Counted from the first letter of the stretch, positions 1 through 14,133 are shown. The stretch: 64,000 nt of DNA from a virus (IMGVR_UViG_3300029288_003134:1-64000); one strand, 5' to 3'. Notes: generated by a model from the letters alone, not told the origin. Numbers and translations are program-made.

Positions 1-932
1 TCCACATCCATACCCAATTCATAGACAGCATCAGAATTATAACCACCCGCTCCATTGATAACCTGCTTCTGCAACTTCAATCCAAGCTCCTTGGCGTGCT
101 GAAATAGCCGCTCTTTCATGTTCACATCTGAGAGATTTCCCACATAAACCACCAGCCCATCACCCAAGTTACAGGGCCCGGCTTCCTTTTCGTCTACTCG
201 GTCATAATCTGTAGCAAAGGTGACATCAAACTCCAAAAGTTTATTTGGTTGAAACTTTCTGATTAACGGTTTGAGTCGAGTAATTCCAGTCTCTTCCTGT
301 CCAGAAAAGGAAAATATTAGAGTCTTTGTTGGTGTTTGTTTTGTCTCCAAGAAAAATTCCAGAACCTTTAAAACAATAATGCAACCAATCTTATCATCCA
401 AGGCAGTACCAAATACACGATTATTAGCGAGTTTGCCAAAGGTGGGTTTATACCCAATGTAATCACCGACTTCTACCAGAGCTTCTGCCTCTTCCTTTGT
501 CTTACAACCAATATCAAAAACAATATTGAAAGTTTTTTTAGGAAGCTCATCCTTTTCTTCTTCAATAAAGTGCATGTGCTTACGATCTGTGACACAGGGC
601 ACGGGGCCATTCTTGGTAAGTACAACCATCTCACGAGCCTCAACTGCCGCGAGGGATACCCCACCAATCCTATAGCAAACAAGCATACCCTCTTTGGTAA
701 TGCTCGAAAGTACAAACCCAATCTGGTCAAGGTGGGCATCCAACATTACGGTTTCTTGTGAGGTTCCGGGTAAAACAGCCGTAACATTATTATGCTTATC
801 CTGCGTGATATTCAAACGGTCTGAAGTATCCATACTGCAAATAAGCTGAGTGATATAGGTAGACAGAGCTTTTTCTTTGCCGGAAATCGCTAGGATATTT
901 ACCATCTCAGATAGAACTTTTAAATCATCCAT
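1..932 (-). CDS. M42-family (TET/FrvX-like) metallo-aminopeptidase, runs off the window start
   Basis: Not in the ORF track; my translation from ATG 932 (GGAGG RBS) gives MDDLKVLSEMVNILAISGKEK...MLDAHLDQIG...GTALDDKIG...SGQEETG...FDVTFA, matching the M42 metal-binding motifs. Confidence 0.85.
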   Translation of the reverse strand, partial: MDDLKVLSEMVNILAISGKEKALSTYITQLICSMDTSDRLNITQDKHNNVTAVLPGTSQETVMLDAHLDQIGFVLSSITKEGMLVCYRIGGVSLAAVEAREMVVLTKNGPVPCVTDRKHMHFIEEEKDELPKKTFNIVFDIGCKTKEEAEALVEVGDYIGYKPTFGKLANNRVFGTALDDKIGCIIVLKVLEFFLETKQTPTKTLIFSFSGQEETGITRLKPLIRKFQPNKLLEFDVTFATDYDRVDEKEAGPCNLGDGLVVYVGNLSDVNMKERLFQHAKELGLKLQKQVINGAGGYNSDAVYELGMDV

Positions 933-1055
933 TGTTTGAATCCTCCAAATTATTTTCAATCCAGTCAGCCCAAGTTATAATCAGCTGACCTAAAGAACCA
1001 CCGTGAGCTTTACCCACAGCTCGCATAGAAACTAAAAGTTCTCGTTTACCCATCT

Positions 1056-2036
1056 TTAATCCTTGTCTGCCCGCATGCGAACCTGTGTGGGATGCCGAGG
1101 AAGATCGACCGCCCCAACCATAAGACCTTTGTATTCTATTGTTTTTCCAACAAACTCATCCTGATGTTGCCAGATATAGAACTTCTGCTCTTTGGTATTT
1201 TTGATTGCCACGGCTAACTGCGGGCCACCCTCGTGCTTTACAATAAAATTCTTCGCCCAACCTCCGGGAATCCTGTCACCCTTCTTTTTGCTGGTCTCTG
1301 AGTAACCGAGTTCATTGATCTTCTTGGCCGCTTTGGGGTCAACATTTGTGCCCTCTTCCACACCAATGATCTTTGCGTCGAAGGTTTGGTATGGTTTGAG
1401 TTTATAAATAAGGCCTTCCCGCATGGTTCCCCGGCCACACTTATAACGCCCTTTCGGAGCCCGCAGGATTAAGCCGTCACAAACAAAGTGCTCTTCACCT
1501 TCGTACATCTCAACCCAAGCAAGGGCCTTCTCGTAATAGGCTACCACTTCTTCGGGAGACCAGAGAACTTTCTGTTCCACTCCGGTAATTAGATTCGGAA
1601 AGCACTGAACCATCGTATTGATTCTTCCCATACGAATGTCGAAGGCCTCTTCAAAATTACCATTGAAAACGCTATCGAACATGAAGAATTTAGTGTCTTC
1701 TGGCAAAGGCATTTCATCACTGCGAAATATTCCGCTGAAAACATTGAAAGGTGTAGAAGCCGCAAGAAGCTCACCATCGAGTAACGGGTTCAGCCCTGTG
1801 GCCCTGGTCTCTCTAGCGACCCAATTAACGATAGGTGCAAACTTTTCATTGACATGAATATTGCTGAAAGGCTTTAGGCTCGCAGTCCTCATTTGGCCTT
1901 CGTAGAAAGATGCCCTGAAACCATCCAGCTTGAATGAACCAATAAGAGGATACTGAAGCGTACAGGCCTTAGCATAGGCAGTCTTCCCGACTAACTCAGT
2001 ATTGGGGGCCTTCATGGGCTGGAAAGCTTTACTCAT
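1056..2036 (-). CDS. ATP-dependent DNA ligase
   Basis: KLDGFRA adenylation motif, LDGEL, FMFD, DGLILR, KLKP, C-terminal OB fold ending PRHP. Confidence 0.93.
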   Translation of the reverse strand: MSKAFQPMKAPNTELVGKTAYAKACTLQYPLIGSFKLDGFRASFYEGQMRTASLKPFSNIHVNEKFAPIVNWVARETRATGLNPLLDGELLAASTPFNVFSGIFRSDEMPLPEDTKFFMFDSVFNGNFEEAFDIRMGRINTMVQCFPNLITGVEQKVLWSPEEVVAYYEKALAWVEMYEGEEHFVCDGLILRAPKGRYKCGRGTMREGLIYKLKPYQTFDAKIIGVEEGTNVDPKAAKKINELGYSETSKKKGDRIPGGWAKNFIVKHEGGPQLAVAIKNTKEQKFYIWQHQDEFVGKTIEYKGLMVGAVDLPRHPTQVRMRADKD

Positions 2037-2517
2037 GCCAGCTCCTTAAACTTTACATTTTTATATTCCTGAGCAAGAGCGTGAGCCATATTCCGTAACA
2101 CGTTTATAGTGCTTTCTCTGCTGTACTGACTTTCAACAAGGTGAGTCCCTGTGTGAATGCGCGGGCCTACGGCTATGGTAATGGTTTTACGTTTAGGTTT
2201 CATATTAACTCCAAAGAATTAAAATGATCTGAGGCCTGGTCATAATCCAGAGTATTCAAAACTTCTTGACCAAAACGAAAAACACGATAGACCTTCTCGC
2301 TATTACACGTAAGGTATAAATCATGCACTTTCTTTGATCTACGGATTATCAGTGTTGGCATATAGAATTATTCCATTCAAACTCTTTGGTTATGGTATTA
2401 TATTGAGCATAGCCTCTCCCGATGGCCTGCTTTTCAAATTGTTCTTGTGTACCAATATATCCAATACATATACCCAAAATGAGTGCGAGAATACCAAAAC
2501 TTAGAAAATCGTCCATA

Positions 2518-2814
2518 TTATCCTCCGCGATTGAACCGCTTCAAGGCCGTTTTGAAAATGTGCTGGAAAATATTATCCTTAGCCGGAGCCGCCGGATTAT
2601 ACTTTTCCTTCATGTGATTGTAGAACTCCAGACCATCAGCTTTCTTGACATCTTTTTTAGCCTTGCAATTACTGGCAATAATGGCCTCCTGAGACTTCCG
2701 CAACTGGCCGATCTTCAACAGTTCATTGGCCGCATTCGGGTACTCGGGATTCGCGTTAAAGAACGCTTCGCGCTTGTTCAAATTCTGTGGTGCTGGTGGT
2801 GTCAACTTAGACAT
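2518..2814 (-). CDS. hypothetical protein
   Basis: ORF; start moved to MSKLTP with AAGGAG RBS, just downstream of a sigma70 promoter. Confidence 0.6.
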   Translation of the reverse strand: MSKLTPPAPQNLNKREAFFNANPEYPNAANELLKIGQLRKSQEAIIASNCKAKKDVKKADGLEFYNHMKEKYNPAAPAKDNIFQHIFKTALKRFNRGG

Positions 2815-2853
2815 CTTTTCGATCTCCTTTGTATGGTTTACGATTATGGAGCA

Positions 2854-2882
2854 AGTATACCACACAATTCTAAATTTGTCAA
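2854..2882 (-). promoter_or_regulatory. sigma70-type promoter TTGACA-17-TATACT with extended -10
   Basis: Minus strand TTGACA AATTTAGAATTGTGTGG TATACT; member of a repeated family. Confidence 0.85.
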
Positions 2883-2962
2883 TGGGTAGCCCGGTATTTC
2901 ATCCGTAGGTACTTCTGACCGAGCAAGCAGAGGTCGCATTCTCACTTTAAACTATGCTACCC
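2883..2962 (-). ncRNA. tRNA-like RNA (degenerate or mimic)
   Basis: GGGTAGC/GCTACCC stem, TAGTTTAAAGTGAGAAT D-like arm, GACC/GGTC arm with 11-nt loop, CGG-ATGAAATA-CCG T-like arm. Confidence 0.45.
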
Positions 2963-3196
2963 GGCTTCGCTTAAAGGTGCGGAAATCTATTCATTGCAAT
3001 AAAGACAAACCATCATGCCCAGAATAAAAGCCAAAAAACATACGCTGGCCCACACACCCAGCAAAAGCCAGAAAAGACTGGGCTGAATTGTATACTGATT
3101 ACCACAGAGTGTCCAGACATAGCTTTGAACAATCGCCGCTAAGCTGAATTTTACATACTGTTTTATTACGGGCTTACCGTTCAACATAAGGTCTCC

Positions 3197-3472
3197 TTAA
3201 AATACATCCAAATAAGTATGCGTGATTTCATCGTATACCCTTAAATGCGCCTGCTGAATACCCGGAAGTTCTTCTTTCAGAGTGATTTTCAATAGGCCCA
3301 TATCGTAGGCCTCTAATAGAGCATCCTCAAAACCCTCCACCCCTAAGCAGGCATACTTCGGAACCATTCGTAAAAGCTTTGGCGCAAAGACACGCATCAG
3401 CTTTAGAATAACTGCTCGCTGTTCATGGGTCATATCAGCGCATTTAATCAAGGGTATTTGTTTAGGTTCCAT
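3197..3472 (-). CDS. hypothetical protein
   Basis: ORF in a tightly packed minus-strand operon. Confidence 0.6.
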   Translation of the reverse strand: MEPKQIPLIKCADMTHEQRAVILKLMRVFAPKLLRMVPKYACLGVEGFEDALLEAYDMGLLKITLKEELPGIQQAHLRVYDEITHTYLDVF

Positions 3473-3659
3473 TGTTCCTCAGGCGAGCTAAAAACTTTTC
3501 CGGGCTAACGGGGTCAGCAATCTGGCAAATCTGCTCAATCCGAAAAAGTACAGCATTCTCCAAACGGTCTAACTGCTCAGAGGTTAGATGGTTTAACTTC
3601 TCAACGTGTTCAGCTTCGTGAATGATTCCCTTAATTGCCGCGAGTTTAAATAAGGCCAT
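3462..3659 (-). CDS. hypothetical protein
   Basis: ORF overlapping its neighbours, GGAG RBS. Confidence 0.55.
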   Translation of the reverse strand: MALFKLAAIKGIIHEAEHVEKLNHLTSEQLDRLENAVLFRIEQICQIADPVSPEKFLARLRNNGT

Positions 3660-4352
3660 CTAAAAATCTCCTTTTAAAACTTTATTCCACAAAATTGATA
3701 GTTTTTTAGTTTTTAAATACCACTTAGGTATCCAAAGTTTTAATTCTAACAGGGTTAAATCATTTTTAACGCTGTTAATACGAGTTGCACAAAGTACAAC
3801 ATTTCCGCGAATATAACCATATAAGGGATTTACTCGATCAATAGAAAGAGAATTTCTACTGCGCCCTTCTCCAACTTTCCAATCTAGCATAATTTTTGTG
3901 TAAAAGCATTTACCCCGCTGTAAGATAAAAAGTTTTTCTAAGTCTAACCGTGTTAAATTAAATTCAATATTGCGTTTTTTACACCGAGCTTTTAGCCTAG
4001 CATAATTTCCGCTGAGTCTGGTATGAATATCTGAATTAAGATTTAAGTATATTTGTCTTCTCCTACAATCATTACAATAAGAAAAATGATATTCATATTT
4101 TTGTCCACGCCTACCGTGTTGAAATTGAGTAATAGATTTAATCTTATTGCACCTAGAACACTTAGCCTCTTTTGAATTTATACGTTCTATAGGTTGATTT
4201 GCCCAAGTGGATTTAAAGCCATATTTATTTAACCAATAACTTATAGTCCGATGATGGGTAGATAAATAATTTGCTATAAATCTATTTGTTTTTCCCAGTT
4301 GATTCAAATTAAGCATAGTTTCTAAATCAAAAGTCGGCATCCGGGTCTCCAA
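3660..4352 (-). CDS. HNH-like homing endonuclease
   Basis: CxxC pairs, QRGKCFYT and LSIDRVNPLYGYIRGNVVLCATRINSVK beta-beta-alpha-metal motif; AT-rich; true start may lie slightly downstream. Confidence 0.8.
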   Translation of the reverse strand: METRMPTFDLETMLNLNQLGKTNRFIANYLSTHHRTISYWLNKYGFKSTWANQPIERINSKEAKCSRCNKIKSITQFQHGRRGQKYEYHFSYCNDCRRRQIYLNLNSDIHTRLSGNYARLKARCKKRNIEFNLTRLDLEKLFILQRGKCFYTKIMLDWKVGEGRSRNSLSIDRVNPLYGYIRGNVVLCATRINSVKNDLTLLELKLWIPKWYLKTKKLSILWNKVLKGDF

Positions 4353-5196
4353 CGCGCAAGACAGTTAAACCGAGTGAATGCCACATTCTACACACTTGCA
4401 AACGATCATCCAATACAAAATCAATATTATACTTCCCACGAATTTCTCGCTCGAATATTTCCCGCTTAACAATGGCGTCTTTACGGGTATCTCCGGTAGG
4501 CCGCATAAGAAGTCTATTTGTCCCAAAAAGTAAACCATAACGGAGTAGCCAGGCTAATGTTTCAGTCCTAACCTTTTCCTGCCTTCCAGAGACAAATAAA
4601 ATTGTAGGCGGAACTTGCCGAGTCTGTTCCATTAAAATAATATTTGCAACTGGGATATTAAGTAGATCAGTCCCACAGAGTTCCTCTTCATAGGGGCCTC
4701 TCCCGGAGTGAGTAGCAAGCGTCCCATCCAAATCACATATTACAGCACTAGGTAGATCGGAATTCCAGTAAATAAGCTCAGCCTTTGGCGCGAGATACCT
4801 CTTATACATATCCCGAATAACTTTTTCACCCGTGGAGTTAGGCCGCTGAAGATCACGTTTAATGCACTCTTCCACGTCTGTATCAAATCGCTGATAACTA
4901 AATTCAATTTTAGGGAATTGTTTCAAAATATAATCTTGAAAATTATTCAACCTAGCCGGATTCAAATTAGTCGCATCAACCAACACATCATAACCCATAG
5001 ACAGGGCTGTGATGGTACAGGCCCGCTCAAATTGAGTAATCAAATCTTCCTGGCGGGGGAGCCAATACTTCCCTCGCATATAGCGAAGATCATCCCGATT
5101 AACCCGTATCCAGTTTGTATTCTTCTGGCAGAACTCGCGTGACCACGTTGATTTGCCCGAAGCGATTAAACCAATAGTAAACTTGACCTTATTCAT
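4327..5196 (-). CDS. pseT: polynucleotide 5'-kinase/3'-phosphatase (T4 PseT-like)
   Basis: P-loop GLIASGKST, NRDDLR, DATN; HAD domain DLDGTLA, SGR, LLMRPTGDTRKD, DDR. Confidence 0.95.
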   Translation of the reverse strand: MNKVKFTIGLIASGKSTWSREFCQKNTNWIRVNRDDLRYMRGKYWLPRQEDLITQFERACTITALSMGYDVLVDATNLNPARLNNFQDYILKQFPKIEFSYQRFDTDVEECIKRDLQRPNSTGEKVIRDMYKRYLAPKAELIYWNSDLPSAVICDLDGTLATHSGRGPYEEELCGTDLLNIPVANIILMEQTRQVPPTILFVSGRQEKVRTETLAWLLRYGLLFGTNRLLMRPTGDTRKDAIVKREIFEREIRGKYNIDFVLDDRLQVCRMWHSLGLTVLRVGDPDADF

Positions 5197-5668
5197 GGCC
5201 CCTCCTTAATTTATCATAATGTAATCTGCAAAGACCTTTTGACGCATGTTTTCTGTTACAGTTTGGGATAGTACACTTTCTATTTTTTGTAAAGTGTATA
5301 CGACAATGCTCAGCCCTATTTATAATTTGTAAGTTTGAAAGAGTATTATTAAACTTATTTCCATCAATATGATGCACAATTTCAGAGGCTCTTAATTTAC
5401 GGCCTAAGGCCTGAGCCATTAAAAACCTATGATAATGTTGCCCTGCGTACTTTATGTAGGTTCTATTACCCGTACCCCGTAAAGCATCGCCACGCTTTTT
5501 AGCAGAGAACCGAGAATTTCCAATTTGTCTACAGGCTACAGAACAAAACTTAGCCTTAGGTTTATAGATAGATGACAGAAAAAATTCTCCGCATACTTTA
5601 CACCTGCGCTCTAAACATTTCAGCCTTAAATAATATTGTTTTTTATCTTCTGGATTTTTATACGGCAT
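5189..5668 (-). CDS. HNH homing endonuclease
   Basis: HRFLM...VHHIDGNKFNNTLSNL...H; zinc fingers at both ends. Confidence 0.9.
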   Translation of the reverse strand: MPYKNPEDKKQYYLRLKCLERRCKVCGEFFLSSIYKPKAKFCSVACRQIGNSRFSAKKRGDALRGTGNRTYIKYAGQHYHRFLMAQALGRKLRASEIVHHIDGNKFNNTLSNLQIINRAEHCRIHFTKNRKCTIPNCNRKHASKGLCRLHYDKLRRGHE

Positions 5669-5881
5669 ATAAATTAAGCTTAAAAGCTCTCCTTATACTC
5701 AGCACAGGCCGAACTATAGACTGTTTCTAATTTAGAATCATAGTGCATTAGTCTTCGATTAACTGAAATTATCGGGTAAATTGCTCGGCCCTCGCCACTT
5801 GGATGAGCCTGTGTTGGTGGAAATCTTTGACAATTTCGGATAACTCTAAACATACAATCTTTGCAGTCTTTATTTCTCCAG

Positions 5882-6574
5882 TTATCCATTCCAATACCTC
5901 CGGCGTACTTCCAATAGGAATTCATTAACTTTTTCTGGCTGTGCCTTACGCTCACATTTTGCTAAGGCTATTTTTGCTGTGTCCGTTAAATCCTCTGCTC
6001 GGTTAATAATCTGCCCAATATTAAACTGACCCTCTGGACAATTCTTAATCCACAATAACTCTGATTTAAAATTTTGATTATTTATTTCTAAACTAAAAGT
6101 TCCTGTCTCCAATAGATCAATCAAATTCCAGAGAGTTCTCAGGTAAGCTATAGCATACTTCTTGGGCCGGGCATCTTTCTTATCCAACATTTTACGCCGC
6201 TGATTAAGGCCATAGCCCACGAAAGCATTGAAGGCATCATTCGGATTCCATACATACGGAAAGAGTTCCCGCATAGCATAACCAAAGGTCATATCAATAC
6301 GCCAACTAGGATTACATTCAACAACCGGGGCTTTAAAAACCTCAAGAATTGTGGGATTACACTTTAAAGCCAGTTCAAGAAAGTGCTGAATTTCATAGGT
6401 GGTCTGATCTTCTTTGCCCTCGAACCAATGAGAACCTTTATAGTTATAATTCAAACTCAGAACTTTCTCAGTAGGCGTAACATAGACACCCCGAAAATCA
6501 TAATCCGAGTCTTCATTATGAAGGCCATGTGCCCGGCTACCCACTAAGCATTTAAGAATAAGAATGTCTTCCAT
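5882..6574 (-). CDS. Pol-beta-superfamily nucleotidyltransferase (RlaP/YcgL-like)
   Basis: VGSRAHGL..EDSDYDFRGVY and LKCNPTILE; start MEDILIL with GGAG RBS. Confidence 0.88.
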   Translation of the reverse strand: MEDILILKCLVGSRAHGLHNEDSDYDFRGVYVTPTEKVLSLNYNYKGSHWFEGKEDQTTYEIQHFLELALKCNPTILEVFKAPVVECNPSWRIDMTFGYAMRELFPYVWNPNDAFNAFVGYGLNQRRKMLDKKDARPKKYAIAYLRTLWNLIDLLETGTFSLEINNQNFKSELLWIKNCPEGQFNIGQIINRAEDLTDTAKIALAKCERKAQPEKVNEFLLEVRRRYWNG

Positions 6575-6575
6575 G

Positions 6576-6818
6576 CTATCTCCGTGCTTGAAGTGCACTT
6601 TTAAAAACACTAGCTAATCCAGTGTATACGTTTACACCCCTACCGGAATAGAGTCCGGCAAAATTAGCCCATTTCTCATCAGGTAATTTTATTTTATTTT
6701 TATAAATAAGTGAAAGTATTGGCTTAACCTTTTTCCATTGATATTCTGTATACTTTAGTTCTTTTAAACAGAACTGCCTTAGAGAAAGTTTCTTTGTAAG
6801 CATTAGTCTATCTTCCAT
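6576..6818 (-). CDS. hypothetical protein
   Basis: ORF within the operon. Confidence 0.5.
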   Translation of the reverse strand: MEDRLMLTKKLSLRQFCLKELKYTEYQWKKVKPILSLIYKNKIKLPDEKWANFAGLYSGRGVNVYTGLASVFKSALQARR

Positions 6819-6973
6819 AATTTAGTCCTTAGGTGGTGTTAATCGCCGTATAAATTCTTCTGCTGTTAAACCCTGCTTAGCAAAAATCCGAGCGCGTCTT
6901 TCCGCCTGCTTAGCTGAGAGAAAGGATGCTCTGATACTCTTTGCCGTAGTTGCAGAGAACTTTTTTAAATTCA

Positions 6974-7315
6974 TTACCCCTGTACCCCGTCTAATAATTG
7001 TCTCAGTTGCCCTTCAAATATTTTAAAATTTCTATGTGGAAAAGATATTTCAGCTGTCGTTAATTGAATCAGCTTATACATGCCCATTAAAGTTGCCGTA
7101 CCGTTATAGGAAACCTTTAACGTCAAGCCGTCTTTTACATACCAGGCACCTAAACCCTGACCACAGATAGCATATAATTCATAACCTAATCGCTTTGCTT
7201 CAGCATACCCTGGTAATTTATTGGTATCCATCAGACCCGCCCCTTCAGCCAAACGATCAAGAATAAAACCACCACGATTAAAGGAATTGTATAGAGGCCC
7301 ATTATGATACCTCAA
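6974..7315 (-). CDS. hypothetical protein
   Basis: ORF; true start probably the internal MDTNKL. Confidence 0.5.
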   Translation of the reverse strand: MRYHNGPLYNSFNRGGFILDRLAEGAGLMDTNKLPGYAEAKRLGYELYAICGQGLGAWYVKDGLTLKVSYNGTATLMGMYKLIQLTTAEISFPHRNFKIFEGQLRQLLDGVQG

Positions 7316-7634
7316 TCTTTTCTTTGGACATAGAAATCCAAATAGTCATACCCCAATATTTATTGGTATCCCTAATGCTGGCTATCTCGATAATACGCGC
7401 CCAAGGTTCGATCTCAGCAAGAAGCTTTTTGTACTGCTGATAACCCAAAGTTAGACTAGTTGGCTTATGCCCTGTCTTTGCCTGAAAAGCATCACGGGCG
7501 ATTGATATTTGGCTACGAATATTTTCCATGCTATTCATCCTTGAACTTGTAAATTTCAACCGTTCTTTCCGGTGAAGTAATTCCCCAATCCTGATAAATA
7601 ATATTTGGCTCCTCCGTAAGATCAGAGGGAACAC
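7302..7634 (-). CDS. hypothetical protein
   Basis: ORF; true start probably internal (MNSMEN). Confidence 0.5.
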   Translation of the reverse strand: MFPLILRRSQILFIRIGELLHRKERLKFTSSRMNSMENIRSQISIARDAFQAKTGHKPTSLTLGYQQYKKLLAEIEPWARIIEIASIRDTNKYWGMTIWISMSKEKIEVS

Positions 7635-8187
7635 AGCAGGGAATATTCACAATGGTAAAATCATCCATGCAGATTGCACCCAGGACATTACTTAAAAGAG
7701 CATGCGAATGAACACAGACAACCAAGACTTTACTCTGTGGGTGGTGCTTAAATTGCAAGTCTTCTATCCGGGCTTTAATCGTCCAAAGCCTATCAATTTG
7801 GGGATGTTCGCCATCCGGTAAAGAACACTTGGGGTCAATCGAGAGAACCTTCCAGGCAGTCCTGAAAGCGAATACCGCGCCAGTTCTGGGCTTGCATCCA
7901 TCACCGATCACATAACAGGTTACTGTTTTATCCGTGAATGAGTAATCATTTTGGAGATGCTTTCTTACCGCATTATAGGCCCCGAAGGATTCCGTGATCT
8001 CCTTAGCATTCGGAAAAAACTTTGTCTGCAAAAGATCAGCCCCGCAGGTTATCCGGGTAAGCTCATTGAGATAGCGCAGATCGGGCCGCTTGATCTCAAC
8101 TGTGATACTGGCTTGGTTTTCCTGGTAAGAGATAACGGAGTCTCGGCCATTCTTTACAGCTCTTTGCTTTCCTAGAAAGTTTTTCAT
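7531..8187 (-). CDS. putative class I SAM-dependent methyltransferase
   Basis: Rossmann-like motif I YVIGDG, acidic motif II LSIDP, downstream HSH and IPCC. Confidence 0.6.
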   Translation of the reverse strand: MKNFLGKQRAVKNGRDSVISYQENQASITVEIKRPDLRYLNELTRITCGADLLQTKFFPNAKEITESFGAYNAVRKHLQNDYSFTDKTVTCYVIGDGCKPRTGAVFAFRTAWKVLSIDPKCSLPDGEHPQIDRLWTIKARIEDLQFKHHPQSKVLVVCVHSHALLSNVLGAICMDDFTIVNIPCCVPSDLTEEPNIIYQDWGITSPERTVEIYKFKDE

Positions 8188-8195
8188 AAAGCTCC

Positions 8196-8636
8196 TTAGA
8201 TATTTCCAGTTAGAACAAATTTTATTAGGTGGGGTAAAAGTCGCTTTACCTGTTCCTGCGTTAAGTGCATACGAGTATCACAAAGCGTGCCTTCCGGCAT
8301 CTCTACAGGCACCCAGCCTTGACCCGGTTTACATACGCGAGGATTCGCCTCCTCACAGCCGAGCCAGATGCAGTTTTTAGTGGCTAATGAGGACTTCTGT
8401 AGTGAACAAGCCACACGATAATAGTCACGAAAAACCCGAATATTAAAACCACGCTTTGTTTTCTTTAATTTAAAGGAGTCTTTCTCAGCAGGTTTTTCCC
8501 AAATATGCCAAATTCCAGTTATACGATTCTGGCGGCATGTCCACCCACGCATTAACCGCCAAGCAATAATACGGTTCTTTGTGATGGTAGAATGATTTCC
8601 TAAAATCGTATACTTTTTATCCCACATCTGAAGCAT
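8196..8636 (-). CDS. conserved phage hypothetical protein
   Basis: CSLQKSSLA...IWLG...TRMHLTQEQV, a motif I recognise from other phage proteins. Confidence 0.65.
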   Translation of the reverse strand: MLQMWDKKYTILGNHSTITKNRIIAWRLMRGWTCRQNRITGIWHIWEKPAEKDSFKLKKTKRGFNIRVFRDYYRVACSLQKSSLATKNCIWLGCEEANPRVCKPGQGWVPVEMPEGTLCDTRMHLTQEQVKRLLPHLIKFVLTGNI

Positions 8637-9699
8637 CCTGTTTAAATGGTTTTGAATAATCGGGTTGAATCAAATCCCAAATTATCCGATCATAGGGTTT
8701 ACCTTTCCACATAGCAAACAAAAGCCCTGAGTCTTTTTCCTGAGCAATCTTCGTAGCAATCGGGTTAAGTATACCACACTCTTTTGCTTTTGTCAAGTCC
8801 GGGTAATTAGAAAGCGTATCTTCAGCCCATTGTTTCTTAGACTCGAAGGCCCTAATTAAAGCTCTACTTGTGTACTTTACCCACTCAAAAAACTCATCCG
8901 GCACTCGGTCAAGCAGATCATTCAAAGGCTGTCCATCTCGTAGATATTCCCAGATCGTCTTGGTACTTACGCCTGTAATAATTCTGTGCAAGCGAACATA
9001 TTCCTCAAACTTCATCTTTACTCGTAGACCCGTATCAAACTGAATAACAAAGCCCTCCTTGCCGATCTCCTGCACCTGTCTTAGGGTCACAAGATCAAAG
9101 GAAGTTATTGGGTATTGCTTAACCAAATTTAATCCCCAAGCACCCGCAAAGGCCTGCATCTCAGCATAAGACCACTCTTCGCCCGTTTCATTATTGATTA
9201 CGGCTAGGAGAATGAGATCACGGGTATTGCCATAGTCAACCACGATTCTATTTTCTGGATAAATTATCTCGAATAAAAATGTAAAGCCAGCGGAATAGGG
9301 AACTGCTGTATATTTTTCCTTCCAAATTCTCGTGGCTTCTATAGCCTGCTCACTTTCAAAGCTTCCTCGCGTGGCAATTCGGCCCTCCCCATCTGGTAAA
9401 AAGTAGAGAATCCCGAGGCTACCATCCATCTTCTCTAAGGCTGTGAAGCGGTGGAAGGCCGGAAGCTTACCTAGAAAAGAGCCTTCTTGATACTCCTCGT
9501 AGTTAAAGAACTTGCTGAAAGGCCGAGCAATAACATTGCCAGCCCCATCCAGAATTAACCCGCGACATTGTAAGGTCAGTTCGTTCCAAAAGCGATCATA
9601 CTGAGTCTTTGCGGTGTAATTGTAAATAAAATAATCAGCGGTTGGATGCTTCCGCTCAGTGATATAGCCCTGATCTATGAGAGTTCTATCAATTTTCAT
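8617..9699 (-). CDS. rnlA: RNA ligase, T4 Rnl1 family
   Basis: CRGLI, RPFSKFFN, EKMDGSL, ATRGSF, FEII, EGFVI, KMK. Confidence 0.93.
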   Translation of the reverse strand: MKIDRTLIDQGYITERKHPTADYFIYNYTAKTQYDRFWNELTLQCRGLILDGAGNVIARPFSKFFNYEEYQEGSFLGKLPAFHRFTALEKMDGSLGILYFLPDGEGRIATRGSFESEQAIEATRIWKEKYTAVPYSAGFTFLFEIIYPENRIVVDYGNTRDLILLAVINNETGEEWSYAEMQAFAGAWGLNLVKQYPITSFDLVTLRQVQEIGKEGFVIQFDTGLRVKMKFEEYVRLHRIITGVSTKTIWEYLRDGQPLNDLLDRVPDEFFEWVKYTSRALIRAFESKKQWAEDTLSNYPDLTKAKECGILNPIATKIAQEKDSGLLFAMWKGKPYDRIIWDLIQPDYSKPFKQDASDVG

Positions 9700-10010
9700 T
9701 AGTAAAGCTCTTCTGGCATTTCAAAGTCGATTTCTTCCATGTAAACATGACAGCTGAATAGTTCACCCTTGGACATTACCTGAACCGTTGAAACAAAGTT
9801 AAAGTTATCTGGGAGATCATTAAAGCGTGGGTCATTGGCTGTGAAAATGAAAAAGCCTATGGGCTTATCCCTGGGCTCTTCATCGTCCACCTCTAAAAAA
9901 ATAGATAGTCCACCGGGGCCGCATCCTGCGGATAAAAATAGCGTAGATTCTCCAAACATTATCTCTTGAAAAACCTTCGGCTCTAAAGGGACTTCTTGAA
10001 TTATTCTCAT
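9699..10010 (-). CDS. hypothetical protein
   Basis: ORF coupled to the ligase start, GAGG RBS. Confidence 0.6.
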   Translation of the reverse strand: MRIIQEVPLEPKVFQEIMFGESTLFLSAGCGPGGLSIFLEVDDEEPRDKPIGFFIFTANDPRFNDLPDNFNFVSTVQVMSKGELFSCHVYMEEIDFEMPEELY

Positions 10011-10046
10011 TATACCTCATTCTTTCTGTGCTTATTAAATCTCTGC

Positions 10047-10496
10047 TCATTTGTAGAACTCCACGCCTTCGATCACAGCGGTTAAGTGTTTATGCCAAGG
10101 CTGTTTCTTTTCTCCCGGCATCCTAAAGAATACTGCGCCATCCGTAATATCCCGTAAATTGGGGAGGTCTGCCGCTAGATTTATTGAAACAGATCGGCAC
10201 TCCCTATCCATAAATATCTCTTCTTTATTTAGATTCGTGTAACCATAATATTGATTCTTCTTCGTCACTACTTCAAAGGCTGTTTCTTCGTTTAGTTTCA
10301 TACGATTCTGAATTGTATTGGCTACACCCAGCATGACATCTGGGCCCATTGAACATGCCTCAGCACAGATTACCTTAGCCACCTCCATTAAATGTGGCTT
10401 CTTATACAGATGGTTTTGCACAGAACAGACAGTAATAAATATGGATACCCATAAAACTACAAACCCTATAAAGCCTATTAGTGTCTGTCCACGCAT
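10047..10496 (-). CDS. SleB-like cell wall hydrolase with N-terminal transmembrane anchor
   Basis: VICAEA, GVANTIQNR, VVTKKNQY, DITDGAVFF, PW; start MRGQTL with AGGAG RBS. Confidence 0.85.
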   Translation of the reverse strand: MRGQTLIGFIGFVVLWVSIFITVCSVQNHLYKKPHLMEVAKVICAEACSMGPDVMLGVANTIQNRMKLNEETAFEVVTKKNQYYGYTNLNKEEIFMDRECRSVSINLAADLPNLRDITDGAVFFRMPGEKKQPWHKHLTAVIEGVEFYK

Positions 10497-10513
10497 TTTA
10501 ATTCTCCTAAAAT

Positions 10514-10586
10514 TGGTCGGGTCTGGATTACGCCAGTATCCACTCGTCCTCACCAGAGAGGCTGTGCGCTTTACACTATCGCCCGA
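10514..10586 (-). ncRNA. tRNA-like RNA ending in CCA
   Basis: TCGGG...CCCGA-CCA, TAGTGTAAAGCGCAC D-like arm, CCTC/GAGG arm, CTGG-CGTAAT-CCAG T-like arm. Confidence 0.45.
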
Positions 10587-10589
10587 AAT

Positions 10590-10820
10590 GTGGGGTGGTC
10601 AAGGTATCTCCCACCGTGTCCGATTGCACCAACCCCGGTCGCTCCATATTGGTTCGGCGTCCTAAGGTTCGGATTTGCCCCAATGGGCCGGGTACTGCGG
10701 CGTCTGTACTCACCTCGGCTGTGAGTCTGTGCGGTTTCTGTCCAACGTGACTATCCGAATGGTATGAGGTCTACCCAGTAAGTCAGAGGTTCTGCATTTG
10801 CCAGGTGCGCTTACTGGCCC
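10590..10820 (-). ncRNA. candidate multi-helix structured RNA
   Basis: GC-rich intergenic stretch with at least six nested helices (see findings). Confidence 0.5.
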
Positions 10821-10825
10821 TTATC

Positions 10826-11800
10826 TTAAAACTTTTTCGTAATACTGCCGCCATAACTTGAATCGTGAATACTCATTGAAATAACTTCACCTTTTTCATT
10901 CTTAATAACCGTGGTCTCACTGCCGTCTGGGACTAAGGTACTGATCTTTTTCTCCAGCTCCTCAATCCGGCGTTCTTCATAACTCTTTCCGAGCTTAATG
11001 GTCAAACGGCCCTGAAAAATATTATTATCATTATTCACATCACGTCCGGCCTGTAATGACCAAGTGGTGTGTTTTGTATCGAGAACTCGCAACTCTCCAA
11101 CGATCTCATAACGATCTTTAAGGCCCCTACCCTGCGGCCCGGTAAGCCCGGTATCACCTTTGGCCCCTTGATCTCCGTCCTTATAATCAACATTTTTTAC
11201 AGGTGTCTTTCCATCCGTACCCTTGGCACCTTGGGGCCCTACTGCACCGTCCGCGCCGTCATTACCAGCCTTACCGGGGTCTCCTTGATCGCCCTTTACA
11301 CCATCTAAGCCGTCTTTCCCGGCGGGCCCTGTATCACCCTTAGCCCCATCTGAACCATTTAAACCATCTCTGCCGTCTTGCCCATCGAGACCATTCAAAC
11401 CGTCCTTACCTGCGGCTCCGGTATCGCCGTTATCGCCTTTATCACCCTTTGCACCGTCAAGGCCGTCCCTACCATTAGCCCCAGTATCACCCTTTTCGCC
11501 TTTGTCACCCTTTAATTCTGGAACATCTTTGGGATTAACCCAAGTGCCTAAACTATTATTACCTTTCTCACCACAATAGGTAAAAATATCCCCGGCCTTT
11601 CCGTCATTTGTATCCTGAACATTGCTATCAAAAGTACAGCCCGGCTCCGTGCAGGCTCTAACCGGACTAACCTGGAAGATTAAAAGAAGAGCCAGGATTA
11701 CTGCCAAATAAACCAGTGGTGAGACCATACTCGGGATAATTCTGGCCGATAACGAAATACTCTGTCCAATAAACTGAATACCCTCAAAAAATTTCTTCAT
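10826..11800 (-). CDS. collagen-like protein with N-terminal signal/TM segment
   Basis: About 40 Gly-X-Y triplets; hydrophobic N-terminus ending VRA. Confidence 0.9.
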   Translation of the reverse strand: MKKFFEGIQFIGQSISLSARIIPSMVSPLVYLAVILALLLIFQVSPVRACTEPGCTFDSNVQDTNDGKAGDIFTYCGEKGNNSLGTWVNPKDVPELKGDKGEKGDTGANGRDGLDGAKGDKGDNGDTGAAGKDGLNGLDGQDGRDGLNGSDGAKGDTGPAGKDGLDGVKGDQGDPGKAGNDGADGAVGPQGAKGTDGKTPVKNVDYKDGDQGAKGDTGLTGPQGRGLKDRYEIVGELRVLDTKHTTWSLQAGRDVNNDNNIFQGRLTIKLGKSYEERRIEELEKKISTLVPDGSETTVIKNEKGEVISMSIHDSSYGGSITKKF

Positions 11801-11831
11801 GTTACACGCGCTCCTTTTGTTTTATTGATTT

Positions 11832-12116
11832 TTAATACTTGATTTTCCCATTAAGAAAGTCTGCGTATGTCCCTTTCTTGGGCTGTTGACCGTCTGCCAT
11901 TAACATGAGCCTACCACGAGATAACCAGACAGCTTTGGGCTGATTCTTCATAATCTTCTTGCGCCTATGAAAGGGCTTGTAACGAATAATAGAACAGCCC
12001 GTGCCCGCACAACCCAAACAAACTACTGCACCATCTGGGGCCTCGCACATGCCACGATATAAACCTGTTCCACCACAATCCGGGCATTCTGTCTTTATAA
12101 ACCTAAATTTTGCCAT
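11832..12116 (-). CDS. DnaJ-type zinc-finger protein
   Basis: CPDCGGTG and CLGCAGTG. Confidence 0.7.
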   Translation of the reverse strand: MAKFRFIKTECPDCGGTGLYRGMCEAPDGAVVCLGCAGTGCSIIRYKPFHRRKKIMKNQPKAVWLSRGRLMLMADGQQPKKGTYADFLNGKIKY

Positions 12117-12125
12117 AGCCCTCCT

Positions 12126-12407
12126 TTACACCAGAGCCAACATAGGCTGAAGGTGTTCTTCATGGACTTTATACACGCCAAGGTGAATCCGCTTCTGAAA
12201 ATGTTTATTAAAGATACTTTGAATAAATTCCCTGAACTGCGGCTCAACCATCCCGAGCGTAAAACCGTTTTGAAACACGTCCAAGATCACAAAACGATAT
12301 TCTTCCATGATCTCTTTCGGAATAAGCTTCAACTGTTCCACGTCAAAGTCATATTTTGAAATGTCCACGAAAGGCGTCCGATGAAAGAAAAATGTGAGTT
12401 CTTGCAT
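12126..12407 (-). CDS. stand-alone GspE/PilB N-terminal domain (T2SSE_N-like)
   Basis: PFVDISKYDFDVEQLKLIPKEIMEEYRFVILDVFQNGFTLGMVEP resembles the T2SSE_N pattern; no ATPase domain. Confidence 0.7.
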   Translation of the reverse strand: MQELTFFFHRTPFVDISKYDFDVEQLKLIPKEIMEEYRFVILDVFQNGFTLGMVEPQFREFIQSIFNKHFQKRIHLGVYKVHEEHLQPMLALV

Positions 12408-12435
12408 GTTCTCCCCCGTTACTGTTTGATTTGAA

Positions 12436-12570
12436 AGGATGCTGGTCTCTCCCAGCTGTCCCTGCGTAGTGTCACTACCACAAGGCGGATTTACGTGCAG
12501 GCTCGTGGTCTCTGTTGGTGGCTCCCTATATGTCCTTATGCCCTTACAAACATATAGGCCAACTTCACTA
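12436..12570 (-). ncRNA. candidate structured RNA
   Basis: CCTATATGT/ACATATAGG, GTTGG/CCAAC, CCTGC/GCAGG, GTAGT/ACTAC and GCTGG-GAGAGA-CCAGC helices. Confidence 0.45.
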
Positions 12571-12814
12571 TCTTTTAAACCTCTACTGTTACCCGGATGT
12601 TACAGTTAATGGGCAAACCGTCCGCCCGATCACTGCCATAGATGGGCTGAAGCCGAACATCCGTAACAACAGCACTTGTTTTGCTTTGAAAATTCATAAT
12701 AGCCCCGTGAATTGCTGAAGCTAATCTTTGCTTTTCTGCTTGAATTTCTTTGATCTCCATTTTGTTCTCGCCTTCTTTTGTGCATTCAGAAAGTTCAATA
12801 GGTCTTAGATAATC

Positions 12815-13024
12815 CTAAACCTTAATCCTCTGGGCATAGGCCGCACACAGCGCGTCTTTCGTGTAAGTCTTACTCACAAAAGTTTTTTCTCCAGCCTTTG
12901 CCAGCGTGAAGTCGGCCTTGTAAACATTCTTGCGGACAGATACTTGCCTGAGCTTAATGCTATCCTGGCCCTTACCTTCCACGGTTTTAATCATCTTTTT
13001 GATCTGATCTTTTGTTACACCCAC
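12815..13024 (-). CDS. hypothetical basic protein
   Basis: ORF with GGAGG RBS. Confidence 0.55.
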   Translation of the reverse strand: MGVTKDQIKKMIKTVEGKGQDSIKLRQVSVRKNVYKADFTLAKAGEKTFVSKTYTKDALCAAYAQRIKV

Positions 13025-13175
13025 TTTTGACCTCCGATAATTTTTGAATGATTACTGTGACTTCTCGAATGCCTGTGCCGATTAAAATTATTACTGCCCA
13101 ATATTGCCACGGTGAAACTGAGAATAAAATTATTATAAGCAATATTGCTAAGATCATCTCAAGCGTCTGGGTCAT
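12987..13175 (-). CDS. small membrane protein
   Basis: Two hydrophobic segments. Confidence 0.5.
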   Translation of the reverse strand: MTQTLEMILAILLIIILFSVSPWQYWAVIILIGTGIREVTVIIQKLSEVKSGCNKRSDQKDD

Positions 13176-13441
13176 TACGAAAAGTCTCCCTGTTCAAGGA
13201 TTACTTCGCAAATTTTCCCCTCCATGGCAGGCGTGCAGACAACAGCCTTTCCCTCTGCGTTTCTGACCTCTATGACCTCAACAAAATGATCTGTCCGCTC
13301 TTCCCCACGATTGCCGTCTGCATCATCCCCATAAATATAGGTTTCAATCTCGACCTTAACATCAGCCTCGAAAGATTCAAAACCATCATCAACAGGCATC
13401 TCAAAGCTTAGATCATTAACGTAATCCGTTCTTCTACTCAT
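13175..13441 (-). CDS. hypothetical acidic protein
   Basis: Asp/Glu-rich, YGDDADGNRGE motif, GGAGG RBS. Confidence 0.65.
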   Translation of the reverse strand: MSRRTDYVNDLSFEMPVDDGFESFEADVKVEIETYIYGDDADGNRGEERTDHFVEVIEVRNAEGKAVVCTPAMEGKICEVILEQGDFS

Positions 13442-13463
13442 GGCTCCTCCAAAGTAAAAATGC

Positions 13464-13515
13464 GCGGGCAGTTAGCCGGGAGGGTAGGCTCGGGGAAGCC
13501 TTACTAACTTGCCCG
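13464..13515 (-). ncRNA. hairpin RNA or terminator exposing CCCUCCCGG
   Basis: GCGGGCA(A)GTTAG/CTAACTGCCCGC stem, inner AGGCT/AGCCT hairpin, T-tract a few nt downstream. Confidence 0.45.
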
Positions 13516-13526
13516 CTGTTCTGCAA

Positions 13527-13748
13527 TTAGACTTTAAAGATTTTGAAACTCTTGCCCCGTTCAACTATTGCCACATCAAGAGTCTGCTCATGGTTATTTG
13601 CTGTGTCATACAGGTTTCTGAAAGCAGATTCGGAATATTCTCCCAAAGATATAATGATCTCCTGGCCTGTTTTCTTTACCTGCTCGATTACCGCTTCAAC
13701 TTGTTGATGGTCAGCTAAACTCATAAGGCCCTTTCGGTTGATCTCCAA
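13527..13748 (-). CDS. hypothetical protein
   Basis: ORF immediately after a promoter. Confidence 0.55.
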   Translation of the reverse strand: MEINRKGLMSLADHQQVEAVIEQVKKTGQEIIISLGEYSESAFRNLYDTANNHEQTLDVAIVERGKSFKIFKV

Positions 13749-13758
13749 ACGTGAAGCA

Positions 13759-13787
13759 AGTATACCACACTTTCAGCCTTTTGTCAA
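13759..13787 (-). promoter_or_regulatory. sigma70-type promoter
   Basis: TTGACA AAAGGCTGAAAGTGTGG TATACT. Confidence 0.85.
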
Positions 13788-13791
13788 GGGG

Positions 13792-14133
13792 CTACCCTAC
13801 CGAGACAACCCGAGATTTTGGAAAATTCGCCAGCACTTCAGTTAAAGGATGCTTTTCCCAATTACGGAAAGAAGTCGGCGCATCGAAGATATAACCATCA
13901 AGCACTTTAATTCTGGCCGTCTTAAACTTCGTGATAAGAAGGAAGTCATGGACAGGCCGCTTGATGAGGTTCTTGAGTAGGTACAGCTTAACCGTGCCGT
14001 CTTCCTTCTGCACCTTGGCCCCGGCATAGTGCCGCCACTTGCCCCAGCCTACGATTTTCCCGGAAGTCTTGGGATTAAAGCGGGAGCCTTCTTTGCTTGT
14101 AACCAAATCGTTTATTTTGAATTCTTCGGCCAT
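13792..14133 (-). CDS. hypothetical protein
   Basis: ORF within the operon. Confidence 0.55.
   Translation of the reverse strand: MAEEFKINDLVTSKEGSRFNPKTSGKIVGWGKWRHYAGAKVQKEDGTVKLYLLKNLIKRPVHDFLLITKFKTARIKVLDGYIFDAPTSFRNWEKHPLTEVLANFPKSRVVSVG

Follow-up and report, generated by a model that had tools for sequence, protein, structure and literature searches.

An unnamed virus-restricted family of predicted methyltransferases associated with RNA ligase genes, with a member in a T4-style RNA repair region

We analysed a stretch of 64,000 nt (hereafter, the window) from the IMG/VR virus record IMGVR_UViG_3300029288_003134, whose source sequence is 92,558 bp long with a CheckV completeness of 100%. 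Between positions 4327 and 9699, the minus strand of the window carries the genes of a T4-type polynucleotide 5′-kinase/3′-phosphatase (Pnk), of an RlaP-family nucleotidyltransferase and of an Rnl1-type RNA ligase, together with the gene of a 218-aa protein (7531-8187) belonging to an unnamed, virus-restricted family of class I S-adenosylmethionine (SAM)-dependent methyltransferases, whose members are found near RNA ligase genes in many independent lineages. Our reading, which we hold at about even confidence, is that the region carries a set of tRNA break-repair genes of the T4 style, that this set acquired a methyltransferase, and that the latter is a ligase-associated RNA methyltransferase. 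The cutting of tRNA is a common last-line defence of bacteria, and repair by phage Pnk and Rnl1 is a classic counter-measure. An earlier note, made from the sequence alone, had proposed for this region a four-enzyme module in which a non-Hen1 methyltransferase would protect the repaired tRNA.

The motif strings that had been reported in the product of 7531-8187 were present exactly as claimed, namely VIGDG at residues 93-97, SIDP at 116-119, HSH at 160-162 and IPCC at 182-185. This protein had no match in Pfam, PHROGs, NCBIfam or the sequences of the PDB. Its AlphaFold2 (AF2) model, obtained with an alignment of homologues, had a predicted local distance difference test score (pLDDT) of 92.1 and a predicted template modelling score (pTM) of 0.87. 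A Foldseek search of the PDB with this model gave probability 1.0 to many SAM enzymes and methyltransferases, and a VIA fold search retrieved 340 chains at Z > = 8, with class I methyltransferases at Z 11-13, many of which were RNA methyltransferases (RsmG, Z 12.8 with 162 aligned positions and a root-mean-square deviation of 3.7; TrmI, 12.3; TrmN, 12.1; Spb1, 11.7). The model has the Rossmann-like alpha/beta fold of class I methyltransferases, with the strand order 3-2-1-4-5-7-6, and the protein has both the glycine-rich motif I and the acidic residue, closing strand 2, that serves the ribose of SAM in this class: precisely, G95-D96-G97 follow strand 1 (89-94) and D118 ends strand 2 (113-117), these residues being 96-100% conserved among 57 homologues. 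AF2, Foldseek and VIA therefore agree with the Rossmann-type SAM methyltransferase fold that had been attributed to this unassigned product, and we predict with high confidence that the protein is a SAM-dependent transferase.

Besides the general features of the class, the family has a signature of its own. It consists of K62-E63-x-x-E66-S67 in the helix before strand 1, P100-R101-T102, H160-x-H162 after strand 4, C184-C185 after strand 5 and Y198-x-D200. The GDG of motif I, Asp118 of motif II and the HSH of motif IV are invariant in the family; the list of invariant residues in the family alignment is K62, E63, E66, S67, G97, P100, R101, T102, D118, H160 and H162, and C184 and C185 are conserved at 98%. 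Judging from the predicted structure, these family-specific polar, His and Cys residues sit where class I methyltransferases form their active site. Ahead of the methyltransferase core there are no more than about 35 residues, with little conservation, and two short helices, and the median isoelectric point of the family is 8.5. In a search for fused forms we found only three long proteins, whose extra regions were uninformative and one of which is probably an artefact of a rotifer gene model.

The 218-aa protein has 58 close homologues, and a profile search extended the family to about 1,917 representative clusters at E < = 0.001, 762 of them at E < = 1e-30. The loci that we recovered were almost all viral or metagenomic (29 in IMG/VR and more than 80 in metagenomes): tblastn gave no match to the family in 50,697 cultured phage records, and among 185,579 prokaryotic species genomes, one genome per species, only one locus was present, in an archaeal metagenome bin on a contig of 9 kb. 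Homologues were also present on megabase contigs of bdelloid rotifer assemblies (Rotaria sp., P0199, P0202, P0208), and the Atlas lists a green-algal cluster. The strongest structural matches in BFVD were uncharacterised proteins of giant viruses (Tupanvirus, Catovirus, Hyperionvirus and Klosneuvirus), with E 1e-12 to 1e-15, TM-scores of 0.65-0.70 and identities of 21-26%. The rotifer, giant-virus and algal occurrences suggest transfer between viruses of bacteria and viruses of eukaryotes. The family is hence an essentially virus-only, uncharacterised group of class I SAM methyltransferases, for which no description was found in the literature searched, although comparative work on RNA repair may mention it.

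To describe the neighbourhoods of the family, open reading frames (ORFs) were called in the loci fetched from IMG/VR, from metagenomes and from genomes, and the neighbouring products were scanned against Pfam. In 23 non-redundant IMG/VR loci, considering three genes on each side (123 neighbours), the commonest family was the PF09414 RNA ligase, with 7 occurrences, followed by the PHA02142 OB domain that accompanies PF09414, with 3, every other family having at most 2. The metagenome loci (117 neighbours) again had PF09414 in first place, with 6 occurrences, plus one RtcB and one CCA-adding enzyme. The neighbouring ligases had RNA-ligase domains only. A PF09414 gene was present in 17 of the 29 viral records and an Rnl1 above the family cut-off in three, while RtcB was absent from all 29 and was found once, in the metagenome locus L069, where only 4 nt separate the end of its gene from the methyltransferase gene that follows. 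In another locus (L033:6049-8633), a CCA-adding enzyme with an HD domain lies two genes upstream of the closest homologue of our protein (50% identity).

The two genes were also closer to each other than expected. Precisely, in the 12 lineage-representative records longer than 30 kb with both genes, 7 had them within 4 kb of each other, compared with 1.33 expected at random (P = 6.4e-5). An RNA ligase, either Rnl1, a PF09414 ligase or RtcB, was encoded within 4 kb in 12 of the 30-36 well-flanked lineages, and the ligase-positive lineages, with Rnl1, a PF09414 Rnl2/Rnl5-like ligase or RtcB 0-4 kb away, occupied at least nine places on the family tree, which is a quick tree and not a careful maximum-likelihood one. 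Ten of 12 ligase genes were within 2 kb of the methyltransferase gene. With the loci collapsed to 87 lineages, the density of ligase genes per 100 kb was 4.3 in the first 2 kb from that gene, 1.3 between 2 and 4 kb and 0 farther away, a distance decay which is biased because the ligase seeds were themselves found near the methyltransferase gene. The earlier note had fixed in advance, as a test of its proposal, the linkage of homologues to pnk and rnl genes elsewhere: on the rnl side, adjacency to an RNA ligase recurs in many independent lineages, whereas no linkage to pnk was found, since PF25109 was present in 2 of the 29 viral records and in both cases far from the methyltransferase gene. 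RlaP was near the methyltransferase gene only in the window and, once, 8 kb away in another locus. The recurring unit is hence a methyltransferase plus an RNA ligase, not a four-enzyme set.

Two further arrangements were observed in these loci. In L069:193-2840 a radical SAM enzyme, RtcB and the methyltransferase homologue abut on one strand and may form a different RNA repair or modification trio. In L027:7307-7966 and L096:3475-4134, which belong to one clade with PF09414 ligases nearby, a DUF5672 protein is encoded directly upstream of the methyltransferase gene.

Several observations weigh against an RNA methyltransferase that works with ligases. The distance decay of the ligase genes carries the detection bias given above. 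In about two thirds of the lineages with good flanks no ligase is encoded close by, and RNA ligases of every kind are missing from two records with a completeness rating of 100% (G015 and G016). The family shows no co-occurrence with Pnk, and this window alone has the full set for healing, methylating and sealing. Genes of DNA replication (DnaB, UvrD, DNA polymerase A, a primase) are frequent among the neighbours, so that a common early or nucleic-acid-metabolism module may account for part of the proximity; in locus L021, the PF09414 ligase may act on DNA, since it lies among primase, helicase and other replication genes. The class I fold does not discriminate between substrates. In five records carrying the gene, the window's own included, the PF05206 profile of TRM13 matched nothing at E < = 1, and at this threshold the PF07757 profile of Trm44 had no match either. 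Finally, the enrichment of tRNA genes near the family fell short of significance (7 of 18 within 1 kb, P = 0.07).

Part of these observations would be explained by a DNA, protein or small-molecule methyltransferase of an early or nucleic-acid-metabolism module, with the ligases close by only as a result of how the module is organised. We consider such a non-RNA substrate unlikely. It would agree with the neighbouring genes for DnaB, UvrD, DNA polymerase A with uracil-DNA glycosylase (UDG), an archaeo-eukaryotic primase (AEP), an RNase T-like exonuclease and NrdD, with the 19 fully flanked loci without a ligase, with the presence of nicotianamine synthase, CntL and plant O-methyltransferases among the top Foldseek matches in the PDB, and with the Cys-Cys after strand 5, which could serve the C5-methylation of pyrimidines in DNA. 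However, in each of the two independent samples no family, replication proteins included, was as frequent among the neighbours as RNA ligase, and partners of strict RNA specificity are found, namely RtcB, Rnl1 and a CCA-adding enzyme. Moreover, the signatures of DNA methyltransferases (DPPY, PCQ/ENV) are absent and so is a target-recognition domain, in a protein of 218 aa with a short N-terminal extension.

With respect to the type of RNA methylation, we looked at the nearest named relatives. In the Atlas, the nearest named neighbour is a viral Methyltransf_32 cluster (feature score 0.93, TM-score 0.68-0.73). The corresponding profile, PF13679, aligned over nearly its full length with the methyltransferases of two records (G012 and G005), with 12-13 bits against a cut-off of 27, and among the family members only 2 of 57 matched it (E 0.22); this fits a distant relative of Methyltransf_32 and not a member of it. 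The first named matches in BFVD were TRM13-like, one from Hyperionvirus (E 2.4e-5, TM-score 0.51 across 162 columns), the other from Bodo saltans virus (E 3.9e-4). In the published model of Trm13, as summarised in a review, K307, H308, H350 and the cysteines C343, C347, C348 and C352 are in a pocket adjacent to SAM (PMC10608323), and H160/H162 and C184/C185 of our protein resemble H308/H350 and C347/C348 of that model when compared by residue pattern. The CHHC zinc-finger tRNA-binding module was present neither as a domain nor as a motif in the 218-aa protein. Of the Trm44/Trm13-type hint that the earlier note had seen in the PCC motif, the Trm13 side thus receives weak support from the TRM13-like matches in BFVD and from the His/Cys-Cys pattern, whereas the Trm44 and TRM13 profiles do not agree with it. 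We considered this likeness to TRM13 and Methyltransf_32 as a lead towards ribose methylation, not as a proof.

The same relatives could also point to a stand-alone tRNA methyltransferase, for example a Trm13-like internal 2′-O-methylase, which would modify intact host or phage tRNAs as a pre-emptive shield or for the tuning of translation, the linkage to ligases being that of a shared neighbourhood of tRNA maintenance. In fact, the TRM13-like enzymes that are its nearest named structural relatives methylate intact tRNA (PMC10608323). In four loci (L007, L038, L089 and L094) the gene lies directly beside tRNA genes, including one for tRNA-Lys(UUU), at distances of 15-42 nt and with no ligase nearby, and complete phages without any RNA ligase also carry the gene. 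Giant viruses of the Klosneuvirus, Tupanvirus, Catovirus and Hyperionvirus types, which provide the strongest structural matches, are known for translation-related genes. On the whole we judge this alternative improbable, though not negligible: the proximity to tRNA genes lacks significance, a tRNA-binding accessory domain such as the CHHC zinc finger of Trm13 is absent, and so tight an adjacency to ligases of four types suggests cooperation over mere co-location.

A different chemistry on RNA was also considered, either C5-methylation through a Cys nucleophile, as in TrmA- or NSUN-like enzymes, or transfer of an aminocarboxypropyl group, as in nicotianamine synthase (NAS), CntL and TYW2. RNA m5U and m5C methyltransferases have their nucleophilic cysteine at the motif VI position, which is where the nearly invariant Cys-Cys of the family is found, after strand 5. 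The best Foldseek matches in the PDB were MtNAS and CntL (E 1.7e-5, TM-score 0.46), with alignments spanning also the N-terminal part of the model. Nevertheless, NAS and CntL have low TM-scores and, with a VIA Z of 11.6, do not surpass ordinary RNA methyltransferases, TrmA- or NSUN-like structures were not among the top matches, and a comparable Cys-Cys feature is present in Trm13, a proven 2′-O-methylase (PMC10608323), so that we regard this chemistry as very unlikely.

As regards the repair genes of the window, the calls of Pnk, of the Pol-beta nucleotidyltransferase and of Rnl1 proved sound, with Pfam scores all well above the family cut-offs and intact catalytic motifs. Rnl1 (8617-9699, 360 aa), the most upstream of the repair genes, matched PF09511 RNA_lig_T4_1 (1.1e-20) and phrog_562 (4.5e-74); its motif I is KMDG (KxDG) with Lys90 and its motif V is KMK (228-230), and its closest cultured relatives are RNA ligases of Streptomyces phages (38-40% identity). 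The RlaP-family nucleotidyltransferase (5882-6610) matched PF10127 (2.6e-27) and phrog_388 (6.5e-28), with an intact GS...DxD motif at residues 24-38, and its true start is likely Met13, near position 6574. Pnk (4327-5196, 289 aa) matched PF25109 HAD_PNKP (8e-40), AAA_33 (4e-14) and phrog_505 (3.3e-80), with an intact P-loop, GLIASGKS, at residues 9-16 and an intact HAD motif, DLDGT (DxDxT), at residues 155-159. Enzymes of the RlaP family put 1-2 nucleoside monophosphates onto the 3′-OH ends of RNA (bioRxiv 10.64898/2025.12.29.696909).

Every gene from about 24 kb down to position 1 is on the minus strand. This part of the window is made up, in order of transcription, of a collagen-like tail fibre (10826-11800), a GC-rich gap of 272 nt without any ORF (10554-10825), just upstream of the repair block, a cell-wall hydrolase (10047-10553), a DUF7352 protein (9699-10010), Rnl1, a small conserved phage protein of phrog_3849 (8196-8636), the candidate methyltransferase, four small ORFs, RlaP, a 91-aa ORF, an HNH endonuclease (5189-5668), Pnk and a second HNH/endonuclease VII-like gene (3660-4352). 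The four enzymes that had been described as co-oriented in 4327-9699 are thus all present and all on the minus strand, but they form neither a compact module nor a tight four-gene operon, since the HNH gene, the phrog_3849 gene and about six more small ORFs are interspersed among them. The whole region had no megablast match in the 50,697 cultured phage records, and the remaining small ORFs of the window had no homologues in any related locus.

The Pnk gene is bracketed by the two HNH-type endonuclease genes, at 3660-4352 and 5189-5668, both of which look like homing-endonuclease insertions in the repair block. The one at 5189-5668, which matched PF13392 HNH_3 (2.2e-07) and many HNH PHROGs, is probably a homing-type insertion between RlaP and Pnk and not a component of the repair. 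At the other end of the block (8617-11800), Rnl1 is directly downstream of the collagen-like tail-fibre and cell-wall hydrolase genes. The label of phrog_562 is "RNA ligase and tail fiber protein attachment catalyst"; since it names tail fiber attachment, Rnl1 may have a structural role.

The phrog_3849 protein (6e-25) has a conserved core of about 92 aa (8199-8489) and 560 homologues of about that length, and is very common in phages. Its AF2 model (pLDDT 90) had weak best fold matches in the PDB, to Sub1/PC4 (Z 5.8) and Pur-alpha (Z 4.9), by which it may be a PC4/Pur-alpha-like binder of single-stranded nucleic acids. In cultured phages the surroundings of its homologues are not specific to repair, and its membership of the repair set is possible but uncertain. 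In Caulobacter phage CcrPW (L120, 225027-226251) a homologue of this protein adjoins the gene of a tRNA-His guanylyltransferase (Thg1).

For the two tRNA-like RNAs that had been placed around the repair genes, at 2883-2962 and 10514-10586 on the minus strand, we found no support: ARAGORN predicted no tRNA in 1-14000 with default or 90% thresholds and, at 80% thresholds, only junk within coding regions; neither had an Rfam match at E < = 1; and their folding energies were no better than those of shuffled sequence (z = -1.2 and 0.0). The 10554-10825 gap, which the earlier note had pointed out as a possible structured RNA, likewise had no Rfam match at E < = 1.

Putting these data together, we propose the following scheme for the putative ligase-associated RNA methyltransferase. 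Pnk would heal the ends of a broken tRNA; in this phage, RlaP could first re-add the 3′ nucleotides lost at the break; Rnl1 would seal it; and the methyltransferase would act on RNA, most likely tRNA, in concert with the ligation. The tRNA genes that directly adjoin the gene in several loci, although without a significant enrichment, also speak for this reading. The favoured chemistry, by means of a predicted Trm13/Methyltransf_32-like active site with the Lys-Glu helix, the His-x-His after strand 4 and the Cys-Cys after strand 5, would be the 2′-O-methylation of a ribose at the break or close to it; transesterifying anticodon nucleases would then be unable to cut there again. The metal site of Hen1 positions the terminal ribose diol and, by their positions, the His and Cys residues of our protein could bind a metal that places the diol. 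We considered ribose 2′-O-methylation as the most economical chemistry because it is what Hen1 performs in the one known system of repair plus methylation (PMC4411300), because it blocks transesterifying nucleases and because the nearest named relatives are 2′-O-methylases.

These claims do not have the same strength. That the enzyme acts on RNA in cooperation with ligases is, in our judgement, evenly poised between true and false. That it performs a Hen1-like 2′-O-methylation of the junction is a tentative and rather doubtful proposal. We are similarly doubtful, while still entertaining it, about the wider proposal of the family as a non-homologous replacement of Hen1, which would 2′-O-methylate the ends or junctions handled by phage ligases (Rnl1, Rnl2/5-like, RtcB) and render the repaired tRNAs immune to anticodon nucleases. 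The heal-methylate-seal mechanism itself is purely what we infer from these genes.

To our knowledge, Hen1 is the sole means of making a repaired junction resistant to re-cleavage. If the family does methylate repaired RNA, it would be a second, independent solution besides Hen1. A function would then be given to a sizeable piece of viral dark matter (about 1,900 clusters), as a widespread counter-defence that repairs and immunises, unnoticed because no cultured phage carries the family. A role would also be suggested for the conserved His/Cys-Cys active-site pattern that the family appears to have in common with the published model of Trm13.

Among known systems, the bacterial Pnkp-Hen1 and Pnkp1-Rnl-Hen1 likewise combine genes for end-healing and sealing with that of a SAM methyltransferase (PMC4411300). 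The proposed logic would also be the same, in that methylation would render the repaired junction resistant to re-cleavage. However, the differences are several. The 218-aa protein had no sequence match to Hen1 in Pfam, NCBIfam or the PDB, and its conserved acidic and His residues are placed differently; Hen1 structures were not among the matches listed in the two PDB fold searches, which still leaves room for kinship at the level of the class I fold. The N-terminal domain by which Hen1 binds and activates the Pnkp ligase is absent from it. The window has a separate T4-type Pnk and Rnl1 in place of a Hen1-dependent Pnkp ligase, and its genes are separate and interspersed with others, while the homologues elsewhere pair with Rnl1, PF09414 ligases or RtcB. 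The non-Hen1 nature of the methyltransferase, as it had been proposed, is hence supported by the lack of the N-terminal ligase-activating domain and of a Hen1-dependent Pnkp ligase.

The Trm13/Methyltransf_32 group shares with our protein the class I fold, and the published model of Trm13 has a pattern that resembles its His after strand 4 and its Cys-Cys after strand 5, Trm13 being a tRNA 2′-O-methyltransferase (PMC10608323). Unlike that group, the 218-aa protein is not matched by PF05206, reaches only about 13 bits against 27 with PF13679 and has no CHHC zinc finger, and the KEITES helix and the PRT motif are particular to its family.

As regards the Pnk and Rnl1 pathway of T4, with RlaP (T4 NrdC.11 family), the enzymes of the window belong to the same families and have their motifs intact; we know of no methyltransferase in that pathway. 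Cultured phages, Streptomyces phage Wakanda being an example, similarly group Rnl1 with Pnk in a block that lies among tRNA genes, and no methyltransferase is annotated in the block of Wakanda. The Pnk, Rnl1 and RlaP part of the region is therefore ordinary, and its new element is the methyltransferase family with its linkage to RNA ligases.

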